64,000 bases of DNA from Marinilabiliales bacterium (GTDB lineage Bacteria > Bacteroidota > Bacteroidia > Bacteroidales > ML635J-15): NCBI GenBank assembly GCA_002869385.1, contig PKTB01000007.1:80729-144728 (forward strand), in the 5' to 3' direction. Shown piece by piece: positions 31,590 through 43,053 of the stretch (the stretch's first letter is position 1; each line of letters opens with the position of its first letter). Both the position numbers and the translations under genes were made by a program. The notes below the pieces were generated by a model. The model worked only from the letters and a program-made list of their open reading frames with translations. It was not told where the DNA came from and did not search any database.

Positions 31590-33896
31590 TTATTTTTCTT
31601 CTTCCTCCTTAATATCATGATATATGTTGTAGGTGCTATTTATTGCGTCTACCACATCTATTAATTTAGAACCAAAAAACATATTAAAAGCACCAGTAGT
31701 CGATATTACTGGGTTGATAACTCTTTGATATACTCCTTTTTTTTCTATCCCACGATAATCACTGCCTGTGATAATTGTTTTAAAAGAATTTACAACAACT
31801 GTTGGAGGTAGAAAATAAATAGGAACTATTGGTGCTATGTATTTATTAGCAATTTCATAAGATGTTTCTCCTACTTGTTCAATAATGCTTCTTCCTCCTC
31901 TTAAATAATTCTTTTTAATACTATTATATATAGCATCGTTGGACACAACTCCAGATGGTTTATCTGCTCCAATAGTATGTTCTGTTTTTGTGTAACTATT
32001 TTTAGGTTCTTTACTTCTTCCTTCACAATAAACTTGAAATACCCAATCCTCATCTTTACCAGTACCTGCGTTACGATTATAAACCTCTCCAATCCTTGAA
32101 ATATCTTTGCCATGACGTTCCATTTTGCGGACCAATCTTCTTTGCTTCCTTTCAGCCTTGTTCCTACTTTCATATAATCCGTAATTATCAATATACTTTA
32201 CAGGATTTTGAAATCCATATCTGTATGGTGTCCAACTAGGTGCAATATCTAGGATTGGGTCAACACTTATCCAGTTACTTAAATCTGAATCATAATACCT
32301 TGACCCAAAGTAAGTATAATCAGTTTCTGTATCAAGCTCTTTTGCAGTAAATTTATATCTACTATCAAAACTCTTTGTACGTTGTTGTACAAATATCTCT
32401 CCATAAGGAAGATATTGAATATGTTCTTCAGTTTTCCCATCAATATTTGTAATAAAACTACTACTTCCAAGATGATCTGGATGGTAAAAATATCGCATGT
32501 TTTCAGGATTATCCATTAAGTCATATGCAGGAATTAACTCATCATCTATTCTGAATCTGCCGCTAAACACTGAACACGCTATACTACTACGAACCATTTT
32601 TCTCAGATCATTTGCTATACTATTTGCATTACCAAAGATGAAGTCTATAGGTAACTCAGTGGGTGCAAAATCAGCTGATCCAAAACAGCCTCCAATTTTA
32701 CTGCAAATCCTTTCACCTTCAATAAAATAGTGTTTTGTATAATCAGTTTCTGTCATTACCATAAATGGGCTAGCGTATAGAGTTTTTTGTAAAATTGCGC
32801 TTGAATGTACTACATGAGCATTTAATTGCATTAATACTTCCGGACCACTAAACTTCCAAGTTCTTTCTCCTCCGGCATCGTAAAGATACGAAGAAATATG
32901 ATTCAACTCACCACTATCATGTACAGAAAGTAATCTATTCTCTTCATCCCAGCACAAATTTCTTTCATTATTAGCAGTTAATGGAGTACTTCTTCTAATC
33001 ATATTCCCATTTAAATCCCACTCAAATACTTTACCTGTAATTGAACTTACATTATGAGGCCGATCTTCATAAGCATATTTTCTACTATAGCTAATAGTAT
33101 TTGTTACTCCATTAATTAAATTTTGAGAAACAAGACGTTTAGTCCTAATATTCCCAGATGAAGAATATGTCATTTGTAGAGCATAGTCCATTGTTCCGTT
33201 ACCATACGATGAAAAATCACCATAAGATTCCTCTAATCTGTTCAAATCATCGTATTTGAAGCTATAATGAAATACTCCTCCAAAATTCACGTTAACATAA
33301 TCTCCTGTATTATCAATCTGCTTAATATTACCAACAAAATCATATAAATAGTCTAAATTTTGCATTAACAAACCTGTACTTTCTTTACTTATAAGATTGT
33401 CTAACCTTAAAGTCAAATCATTATATGAATAATCACTCATTGTTCCATTACCATATTCGATGTGAGTTTTTCTTCCATACTTATCGTATTCAGTTTTATC
33501 AATATACTTAAATGTTTCCCCGGCTTTAAGTCCTTTCATAGAATATAAATCTCCACCTTTATCGTATTTATATGCTACTGTTTCTCCGTCAGGATATTTC
33601 ATTGCTAATAACCTGTTCCAACTATCGTAAGCCCATTGCATTTTAAAAGTGTATGCTTCACCACCAGGGACAACATAAGTGTGGATATTTTCAATAATCT
33701 CGCCCATATTACCATAAGTAAATGTTTGAACGCCCGATGCATCCTGTTGTTTAACTAAACGTCCACTTTTATTTCCCGTTCCTGCAGTACCATATTCATA
33801 ATAGACATTCATTTCAGGATTTAAAGGATAAGAAATTTGTTTTAAACGACAATCTTCATATTCATAATGTATCAATTCTCCTACTGCATTTAGATT
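31590..33896 (-). CDS. Giant toxin frame, segment 4 of 4: YD/RHS repeats, RHS core end and a 194-aa C-terminal polymorphic toxin domain
   Basis: YD repeats (YEYGTAGTGNKSGRL, YKYDKGGDLY, etc.) are present. The core-end motif is HPDHLGSSSF...YLPYGE...RYKFTAKELDTETDYTYFGSRYYDSDLSNWISVDP...YRYGFQNPVKYIDNYGL. It is in-frame with the upstream segment across TAA 33897-33899. Confidence 0.8.
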   Translation of the reverse strand, partial: NLNAVGELIHYEYEDCRLKQISYPLNPEMNVYYEYGTAGTGNKSGRLVKQQDASGVQTFTYGNMGEIIENIHTYVVPGGEAYTFKMQWAYDSWNRLLAMKYPDGETVAYKYDKGGDLYSMKGLKAGETFKYIDKTEYDKYGRKTHIEYGNGTMSDYSYNDLTLRLDNLISKESTGLLMQNLDYLYDFVGNIKQIDNTGDYVNVNFGGVFHYSFKYDDLNRLEESYGDFSSYGNGTMDYALQMTYSSSGNIRTKRLVSQNLINGVTNTISYSRKYAYEDRPHNVSSITGKVFEWDLNGNMIRRSTPLTANNERNLCWDEENRLLSVHDSGELNHISSYLYDAGGERTWKFSGPEVLMQLNAHVVHSSAILQKTLYASPFMVMTETDYTKHYFIEGERICSKIGGCFGSADFAPTELPIDFIFGNANSIANDLRKMVRSSIACSVFSGRFRIDDELIPAYDLMDNPENMRYFYHPDHLGSSSFITNIDGKTEEHIQYLPYGEIFVQQRTKSFDSRYKFTAKELDTETDYTYFGSRYYDSDLSNWISVDPILDIAPSWTPYRYGFQNPVKYIDNYGLYESRNKAERKQRRLVRKMERHGKDISRIGEVYNRNAGTGKDEDWVFQVYCEGRSKEPKNSYTKTEHTIGADKPSGVVSNDAIYNSIKKNYLRGGRSIIEQVGETSYEIANKYIAPIVPIYFLPPTVVVNSFKTIITGSDYRGIEKKGVYQRVINPVISTTGAFNMFFGSKLIDVVDAINSTYNIYHDIKEEEEK

Positions 33897-41442: not shown

Positions 41443-43053
41443 CTATTTTACAACCAATTTAACAGTCTCTTTTCCCTGCTCTGTTTCAAGCACTACCAAA
41501 TAACATCCTTTAACAGCTATTCGCTTGTTAAACATATATCTGTCTGAACCATTCAGGCTTATTACCTCAATTACTCTTGAGTTTTCATCTAGAATAGATA
41601 CTTTCCCATTAGTGACCTTATCAATAACTACCTCAATACTGAACTCTCCGGTTGTCGGATTAGGATAAACTGCAAAATAGCTAAGCTCATCAATTTCATT
41701 CACTTCCTGAGCTTGATCATTCTCATTTTCTTCCTGTGTATCTTCCAAAACTTCCGGATTGTTTTCAACAAATTCTAGAATTTGAACATACACCTCTTCA
41801 TCCTCTTCAGTTTCCTGCGTACTATAATTATTATTTGCTAGATATTCAGCTAAATCAAAATACTGGAATGCAAAAGCATCTTCTCCTGAGCGATCAATAT
41901 CCCAATAAATATCTTCAAAATAGAAGTTTCCAGTACTATCCATGTTCATCGGGAAAATTATCTCACAAGAATCGGTTTTAAAATCATAGTCAGTTTCGCG
42001 ACTTATAACAAGCATGAGTAAAGTACTGTCGGGAAGCTGTGGAGCAGCAATTTTGATTTTTGTATTTATATCGGGAGCTGTTACTCCGGATCTTGTCATT
42101 TTCCATTTTCTATATGATATGCCTTTTAAATATTCATCAGGTAGAGTGTCTGACTGGTCAAAAGAAAATGGATTTCCATTATCCGACCATATCAGAAAAT
42201 CGTATTGATTTAAGACTGTTTCATTATCAAGGTTTTTATTTTCAAGGTTTCCTGTGTAGATATCCATGATTGATGTTCCGCCTAAAGCACAGCTTTGCTT
42301 TTGGTCAATATTCAGTATTGTATCTTTTCCTATTCCGGCAACTTCATTTGAAAAGTATTCATTTTTTTTGTAATTCCAGATTGTATCTCCTGCAGAATTC
42401 ATATAGTCCATCTGGTAAATACTGATTCCATATTTCATTGCTAAATATGTATATACTTTAGTAATGTCATCCTTCTGCATTATCGTATCATAAAGCATGA
42501 ACTCAGCAAAACTTCCTTTATATGGCAATGAATCACTCCCGAAAATCCTTAATTCTGACACTGTAGAATCAATATTTTCGTGCATCCATTTTTGTCTAAG
42601 AAGATTTATTACTTAGTAGTTATCTGTTGAATCAGCAAAAATGGTTGTTTCATTACTCAGGTCTTTTATATCTTGTGTGCTAATCGAAATAACAGCTGCT
42701 GTATCAAAAGTCATTGACCAGATCCCCCAGGCATTTTTATCTGCTGTAGGACGGTAAACAGAAAACACTGTAAGTTCACACTCATCTTTAATCGTGTAAT
42801 CAAGTAACACATGATTAAACACGCTATCAGATATTAAGCAATTTTGATAGTTAATTAAAGTATCATCAAAATGTAAATTCTGATCTAAAACAATATGCTT
42901 TTCATTTCCACTTACATCGTAAATGCTTGAAAGGCTATCATTAAAACTATCAGCTTTATACCACAGCACAGGACTTGGTACAGTGTCGATTAATTGGGAA
43001 AATCCCAATAGTGAGACCATAATGAAACTCACTAGAAAAAGAAGTTTTCTCAT
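41443..43053 (-). CDS. T9SS-sorted protein, possibly LamG/ConA-like, immediately upstream of the giant toxin. It has an in-frame TAA at 42613-42615.
   Basis: This is one 537-codon frame with a signal peptide. The sequence ...FADSTDNY*VINLLRQKWMHENID... spans the stop. ELRIFGSDSLPYKGSFAEFMLYD...YTYLAMKYGIS resembles LamG-type ends. The CTD is FAVYPNPTTGEFSIEV...GCYLVVLE. There is a 13-nt gap to the toxin start. Confidence 0.5.

Follow-up and report, generated by a model that had tools for sequence, protein, structure and literature searches.

How do RHS cocoon toxins that have neither type VI secretion system (T6SS) adaptors nor a TcA component leave Gram-negative cells? This question is raised by a locus in a Marinilabiliales bacterium, which lies in a 64,000-nucleotide stretch of contig PKTB01000007.1 (hereafter the window; contig C5 of genome G000, which has 28 contigs and 4.25 Mb, with a completeness of 93% and a 'contamination' of 6.8%). 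The largest gene of the locus encodes a giant SpvB-RHS polymorphic toxin and is interrupted in the deposited sequence by three TAA codons, and the gene directly upstream encodes a DUF8202 protein with a type IX secretion system (T9SS) sorting domain. We consider it likely that the locus is an intact three-gene polymorphic-toxin module in which this partner aids or holds the toxin cocoon, and that the five in-frame stops that its record shows are errors; the toxin has three of them, and the partner and a small downstream open reading frame (ORF) have one each.

Translation of the window from 31590-41429 on the minus strand, the strand of all the window genes located below, gives a single frame, 3,280 codons long if the final stop is counted, that has no frameshift but is broken by three internal TAA codons. 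This bears out the initial annotation, which had joined four ORF pieces into one gene; the intact product has 3,279 amino acids (aa). The TAA codons stand at codon 807 (39009-39011), where the alignment with the paralog and orthologs continues through the stop; at codon 1004 (38418-38420), where the same alignment marks the stop as false and the sequence differs from other assemblies; and at codon 2511 (33897-33899), a site across which identity to the paralog is 78%. The in-frame stop in the partner gene (42613-42615) coincides with a G>T/C>A difference to other assemblies, and that in the small ORF (31458-31460) has a difference of the same error class at 31460.

Intact copies of the locus were reached through the 536-aa ENA members of the partner's 90% cluster, while an exact look-up of the neighbouring Fib_succ protein gave no match. 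Two ENA assemblies were compared, ERZ794999 (coverage 63) and ERZ794998 (coverage 6), and in both of them the partner has 536 aa, the RHS gene encodes 3,279 aa and both genes are uninterrupted. These assemblies are independent of the one studied here, and the window is 99.8% identical to both copies, without gaps. Compared with ERZ794999 over 21,611 ungapped bases, it has 40 differences. In thirty-seven of these the window shows a G>T or C>A change, and all the in-frame stops of the region belong to this group; the remaining three are clustered in the 13-nucleotide spacer. The second ENA assembly agrees at all the difference sites that are shared. A JGI metagenome contig has nearly the same sequence and shares the spacer variant of contig C5, yet its RHS frame has three other TAA codons (906, 1411 and 1745), and 9 of its 12 differences are G>T or C>A at other sites than those of the window. 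Because the false stops differ between assemblies, inherited mutations are excluded. On these sequence comparisons the stops are G>T/C>A errors of the assembly, without biological meaning, that fit the oxidised-guanine type, and the three TAA codons are no feature of the gene, being absent from its intact copies.

The toxin begins with a Sec signal peptide or signal anchor (residues 1-24; 41358-41429). An AlphaFold (AF2) model of residues 1-500, made with 23 sequences, shows a helix at residues 4-24, and all complete orthologs of the protein (3,206-3,271 aa) have N-termini that resemble cleavable signal peptides. In the same model a disordered linker runs from residue 23 to about residue 97 and is followed by beta domains at residues 100-450, with a pLDDT of about 90. 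Alignment, the AF2 model and Foldseek together assign this region (residues ~100-450; 40080-41132) to a beta-sandwich and ZU5-like module, part of which matches an ankyrin ZU5 domain with a probability of 1.0 and a TM-score of about 0.64. The motif HFTD (H441 to D444) at the end of the ZU5-like domain is invariant in the 23 aligned sequences and is presumed to be the site of autoproteolysis. The initial annotation had described a hydrophobic anchor at this end of the protein and had missed the ZU5-like module; the AF2 model, the orthologs and the Foldseek match argue instead for a signal peptide followed by this module.

The rest of the toxin follows the fused BC-type plan that had been proposed for it, with SpvB, a putative propeller, RHS shell, core and variable tip, and profile matches support this architecture. 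Pfam and NCBIfam profiles were searched against the four toxin pieces separately. The SpvB domain (residues 488-678; 39396-39968) matches PF03534 with 102 bits against a cut-off of 22 (E 4.5e-29), the match being partial and covering profile positions 3-182 of 287. The stretch 32415-39395 comprises the propeller region, an unassigned insert of some 500 aa and the shell of YD/RHS repeats, with RHS_repeat matches of 47 and 45 bits and a match to YD_repeat_2x. Here the propeller profiles were found only below threshold (TcdB_toxin_midN 17 bits against a cut-off of 24.8; FG-GAP and FG-GAP_3 16-23 bits). The RHS repeat-associated core (residues 3006-3085; 32175-32414), which ends in YIDNYGL, matches TIGR03696 (Rhs_assc_core) with 58 bits against a cut-off of 32.5. 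Similarity to the paralog stops at the end of the core, and what follows is a variable C-terminal toxin tip of 194 aa (31593-32174). Neither the tip nor the small downstream ORF matches any family in Pfam or NCBIfam.

The partner gene (41443-43053) is a frame of 536 codons. Its product starts with a Sec signal peptide, continues with two beta-sandwich domains and ends in a sorting domain of T9SS type A. A gene with such a sorting domain had been noted as ending 13 nucleotides upstream of the toxin, and the Pfam match to Por_Secre_tail (PF18962; 30.8 bits against a cut-off of 27) agrees with this, but the gene is the 536-codon frame and not the 380-aa ORF to which it had been assigned. In the paralogous partner, TIGR04183 matches with 36 bits against a cut-off of 23. 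The DUF8202 assignment (PF26628) comes from precomputed Pfam hits. An AF2 model of the partner (pLDDT 83) shows the two beta-sandwich domains, a linker and the sorting domain, and in Foldseek this last domain matches the T9SS substrate sorting domain 8glk_D with a TM-score of 0.73. The genome has the T9SS translocon gene sprA (2,722 bits), and the window contains many further genes with sorting domains. In the G000 assembly sprA (C17:131514-138737) has two in-frame stops of its own, a TAG and a TAA, so that the errors reach essential machinery as well.

The initial annotation had made the link between T9SS and toxin depend on whether the partner is syntenic with RHS genes elsewhere, and this synteny is strong. 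The partner stands directly upstream of the toxin in a paralogous locus on contig C12, in four relatives of the genus (G004, G013, G015 and G006), and in distant metagenome contigs, with a gap or overlap of 13-16 nucleotides between the two genes. Among partner loci with enough downstream sequence, 47 of 52 have the RHS gene downstream, and these loci come from Bacteroidales, Marinilabiliales, Lentimicrobiaceae, Chitinophagaceae, Saprospiraceae, Cytophagales, Flavobacteriaceae and Sphingobacteriaceae. In the reverse direction, a DUF8202-like gene lies upstream on the same strand in 65 of the 71 metagenome loci found by the N-terminal module of the RHS protein, human-gut contigs included (34 by a strict criterion, and 31 read by eye as having the best match upstream with rising coordinates). 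One family is thereby paired with one other family in about 90% of loci, in both directions and phylum-wide. A DNA-level comparison of synteny within the genus gave no result, the species being too diverged.

A second full copy of the module lies at C12:228566-239952 (locus L070) in the same genome. Its partner is 94% identical, whereas its toxin tip and downstream ORF are different; the C5 and C12 RHS proteins share 74-81% identity as far as the core extends and are unrelated beyond it. Judged from this pattern of identity, the difference between the two loci is the usual tip swap of polymorphic toxins. The C12 RHS frame contains four in-frame stops (TAA, TAA, TGA and TGA) at other positions than those of C5, and no frameshift. 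In the window, the third gene of the module is the very hydrophobic ORF of 124 codons (31206-31580) that begins 10 nucleotides past the toxin stop; a 124-aa gene is called at the same place in both ENA assemblies. From its position and hydrophobicity we would guess that this small membrane protein is a candidate immunity protein.

The toxin itself belongs to a known class. Zhang et al. (2012; PMC3482391) described in Bacteroidetes a TcdB/TcaC class with an identical order of parts (signal peptide, ZU5, SpvB, integrin-like propeller, RHS and variable toxin), and suggested for ZU5 a role in setting the toxin free at the cell surface. The passages of that paper that treat this class name no conserved T9SS-sorted partner and no DUF8202, unlike what we find here, and leave export to an undefined 'TcdB/TcaC-like pathway'. 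Thus the toxin architecture was already known, but its pairing with a T9SS-sorted DUF8202 protein appears to be undescribed: we found no mention of DUF8202 in the literature searched and no published description of a pairing between DUF8202 and RHS toxins.

BC cocoons are also formed in Tc (ABC) toxins, examples being Photorhabdus TcdB2-TccC3 and Yersinia YenB-YenC. The giant protein shares with these cocoons (PMC7861908, PMC11067744) the SpvB start, the RHS shell, the aspartyl protease of the core and the presumably enclosed variable toxin, and it has a putative propeller. It differs from them in having a Sec signal, where canonical TcB N-termini are hydrophilic, in the ZU5-containing N-terminal module of about 450 aa and the insert of about 500 aa that it has in addition, and in the position of its gene, which is not beside a TcA gene and is found mostly in genomes without one. 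The immunity-like gene downstream is a further difference from Tc toxins and is typical of interbacterial toxins. The nearest precedent for the gene order is the TANFOR group of Bacteroidetes toxins, which are encoded just behind T9SS substrates and for which Jana, Salomon and Bosis (2020; PMC7073777) speculated on export by T9SS. The scaffold there is TANFOR and not SpvB-RHS, and the partners are SprB, PKD or Fn3 repeat proteins and not DUF8202 proteins; the pairing described here widens this hint of a role for T9SS in interbacterial warfare.

Taken together, the three genes suggest how the module could work. The first gene product would be a T9SS cargo with a signal peptide, two lectin-like DUF8202 sandwiches and a type A sorting domain. 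The Sec signal of the second, encoded 13 nucleotides on, would bring a protein of about 3,280 aa into the periplasm. The fold of its ZU5-like module and the one conserved motif suggest that this module probably cuts itself at HFTD, and the cut would free a fragment resembling a TcB-TcC cocoon and starting about 45 residues before SpvB. If it behaves as in the BC structures that have been solved, the RHS core would cut the 194-aa tip loose and enclose it. The third gene product, the small membrane protein, would probably provide immunity. The sorting domain of the partner may either help the cocoon across the outer membrane or hold it at the cell surface and aim it there, and in this way delivery of an RHS cocoon could be linked to T9SS.

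Several points weigh against this reading. Activity of the ZU5-like domain is predicted from a fold and one conserved motif, the physical link between partner and RHS protein from gene order, and the immunity role of the small ORF is the guess described above. The partner's sandwiches match only generic lectin, carbohydrate-binding module (CBM) or MAM-like folds in the fold search, and the propeller matches fall under the Pfam cut-offs. Furthermore, the RHS protein itself lacks a sorting domain, and we know of no described case of piggy-back export by T9SS. Finally, G000 encodes a TcA, on contig C2, that could serve the toxin in trans.

A more specific form of the model, which we offer tentatively and consider possible although doubtful, is that DUF8202 proteins are dedicated T9SS adaptors that bind the Sec-exported, ZU5-processed cocoon in the periplasm and either carry it through T9SS by means of their sorting domain or moor it on the surface. 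If true, this would define for Bacteroidota a T9SS-dependent route for RHS cocoons that needs neither TcA nor T6SS, and the cocoon would be the first piggy-back cargo of T9SS. DUF8202 is in any case a genetically testable candidate for the export question with which we began: the pairing spans Bacteroidales to Chitinophagaceae, Cytophagales, Flavobacteriaceae and human-gut contigs, and culturable carriers of the module exist in Niastella, Puia, Ferruginibacter and Fulvivirga, among them Niastella yeongjuensis and Fulvivirga marina.

The TcA of contig C2 allows a different account, in which the giant protein is the BC part of an ABC (Tc) toxin that, after processing, docks in trans on the TcA pentamer, and the DUF8202 partner has an accessory role, such as that of a chaperone or of an additional receptor binder. 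That no TcA or T6SS gene is nearby, as the initial annotation had stated, is true of the window, and a T6SS sheath gene (VipB) was not found in genome G000; however, contig C2 of the same genome carries a TcA gene followed by a TcB gene. The TcA gene (G000:C2:1059-10691, minus strand) is also cut by false stops and has the domains VRP1, ABC_toxin_N, Neuraminidase-like and TcA_TcB_BD (241 + 123 bits). Next to it is the start of a signal-less TcB (SpvB 222 bits, profile positions 1-286), which runs off the contig end. The Tc locus takes up C2:1-10691, with the rest of TcB and any TcC unassembled, and the genome has only two RHS cores.

In the genus, TcA is present in 3 of 39 genomes and all three also have a giant RHS gene, as docking in trans might lead one to expect; the fragment that ZU5 is predicted to release starts much like a canonical TcB, and there are known cases of orphan TcC proteins acting in trans (PMC7861908, PMC11067744). 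However, the C2 TcA is adjoined by its own TcB, and the TcA of G015 is likewise followed by its own BC fusion of 2,367 aa. Three of the six module-bearing genomes of the genus (G004, G008 and G006) lack TcA, as judged by TcA_TcB_BD, and so do four of the five named module genomes, including the complete Puia genome, Ferruginibacter paludis being the only one with TcA. The giant protein is, moreover, predicted to be Sec-exported, unlike Tc subunits, its SpvB match is the partial one given above, and its identity to canonical TcB is 29%. Because the C2 TcA has a signal-less TcB of its own and most module carriers are without TcA, TcA is not the general means of delivery. The proviso of the initial annotation, that a TcA or T6SS locus elsewhere might account for delivery, thus holds as far as the presence of a TcA is concerned but fails for delivery in general. 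Gene content suggests that TcA-mediated delivery in trans is possible in G000 and cannot be the general mechanism of the module, and we regard docking on TcA as an unlikely explanation of the locus.

The partner might also act at the surface as a lectin or adhesin whose sole task is to aim or tether the toxin, with the cocoon leaving by lysis, in vesicles or through another exporter, so that T9SS would be needed for the partner and not for toxin export. T9SS type A sorting domains usually lead to surface attachment, canonical Tc toxins leave the cell via lysis-type systems, and the lectin, CBM or MAM-like sandwiches of the partner would suit such a role. Nevertheless the Sec signal on the RHS protein points to a two-step route, and no lysis cassette was noticed next to the module, though none was specifically searched for. 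We think this explanation quite unlikely, and continue to favour a module whose T9SS-sorted partner aids or holds the cocoon.

The false stops of the module are part of a genome-wide pattern. There are 245 places in G000 where frames of at least 120 codons flank a single stop and the next ATG is more than 30 codons off, compared to 38 frame-shifted junctions, and past such stops coding periodicity persists genome-wide. The comparison genome was that of relative G054, with a median protein identity of 79% to G000. Orthologs with at least 80% identity to G054 carry 0.98 in-frame stops per 1,000 codons, with 34 of 106 genes affected, and those with 65-80% identity carry 1.43; the RHS frame, with 0.9 stops per 1,000 codons, is average for the genome. 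TAA stands in place of Glu and Ser codons and TGA in place of Gly and Cys codons, and the one-step changes that would make the stops are G>T in 18 cases, C>A in 8, T>A in 6 and others in 3.

Radical missense changes show the same asymmetry (GGT>TGT 11 against 0, GAT>TAT 16 against 5, and CCA>CAA 13 against 4). A first, global test of G>T asymmetry was underpowered against natural divergence, whereas these codon-specific radical changes were not hidden by it. Together the sequence data indicate a G:C>T:A process that acted on roughly 0.3-0.6% of G:C sites irrespective of selection. An excess of same-frame junctions in the control relative G024 was set aside as antisense shadow frames, and the mismatch spectrum between repeats within the genome was uninformative, the paralogs being old.

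An alternative genetic code or programmed read-through was rejected, since all three types of stop occur in frame, no sequence motif surrounds them and the residues that they replace differ. An ochre suppressor tRNA-Ser(UUA) was considered as well. The sole tRNA-Ser(UGA) gene of the genome (C18:153532-153619) has an anticodon that reads TTA in this assembly and TGA in the orthologs of the ten relatives' loci that were read; the 30 relatives' tRNA-Ser loci that were fetched are each 90-98% identical to it. TCA is the commonest Ser codon in G000, at 23 per 1,000. The suppressor was rejected as the same G>T change, here on the only tRNA-Ser(UGA) gene. A further tRNA-like gene, predicted by ARAGORN with an 8-base anticodon loop ('ttga'), lies at C21:14-91, the very start of its contig.

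That the stops are nonetheless real, the toxin gene being a pseudogene or being read through by a tRNA-Ser with a UUA anticodon (ochre suppression or recoding), is highly improbable: the stops do stand in the deposited sequence without frameshifts, a Ser-type tRNA with a TTA anticodon does exist there and many of the TAA codons are found where relatives have Ser, but two assemblies are free of every one of these stops and a third record has different ones, TAA replaces Glu as often as Ser, the TGA stops at Gly and Cys codons could not be read by a UUA anticodon, the supposed suppressor is the altered form of the one tRNA needed for the commonest Ser codon, and conserved genes are affected as often as others, which no viable cell could bear.

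The errors resemble a library artefact, reportedly described by Costello et al. in 2013, in which oxidised guanine (8-oxoG) yields G>T/C>A errors. Like that artefact they consist almost entirely of G>T/C>A changes and fall without regard to selection; independent assemblies do not have them, and their sites vary from one assembly to another of the same source. In contrast to the artefact, which usually affects a low fraction of reads, they are in the consensus here, at about 0.5% of G:C sites, and errors in the consensus at this level need low coverage or very heavy damage. False stops occur in this assembly about once per 1,000 codons, and a 'split gene', a 'pseudogene' or a 'suppressor tRNA' reported from G000 therefore needs to be checked against other assemblies first.

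Genes on either side of the module were also inspected. Downstream, at 29567-31114, a 515-aa protein has a C-terminal Fib_succ_major domain and a Por_Secre_tail match that is unusually internal (residues 88-155), and a copy with 56% identity follows the paralogous toxin locus on contig C12. This gene was considered as a part of the module and rejected, as it is conserved only in the paralogous locus of its own genome and not in other genomes. Upstream, between the toxin module and a STAND gene, lies a gene pair (44429-46532) that resembles a small defence system and encodes a 398-aa AAA_15/AAA_21/DUF3696 ATPase and a 300-aa protein without a family. The STAND NTPase gene itself (46971-51131) is in four same-frame pieces separated by three TAA codons in the window and is intact, with 1,386 aa, in both ENA assemblies; two of its false stops are C>A differences (49979 and 47513) and the third is a G>T difference (48568).

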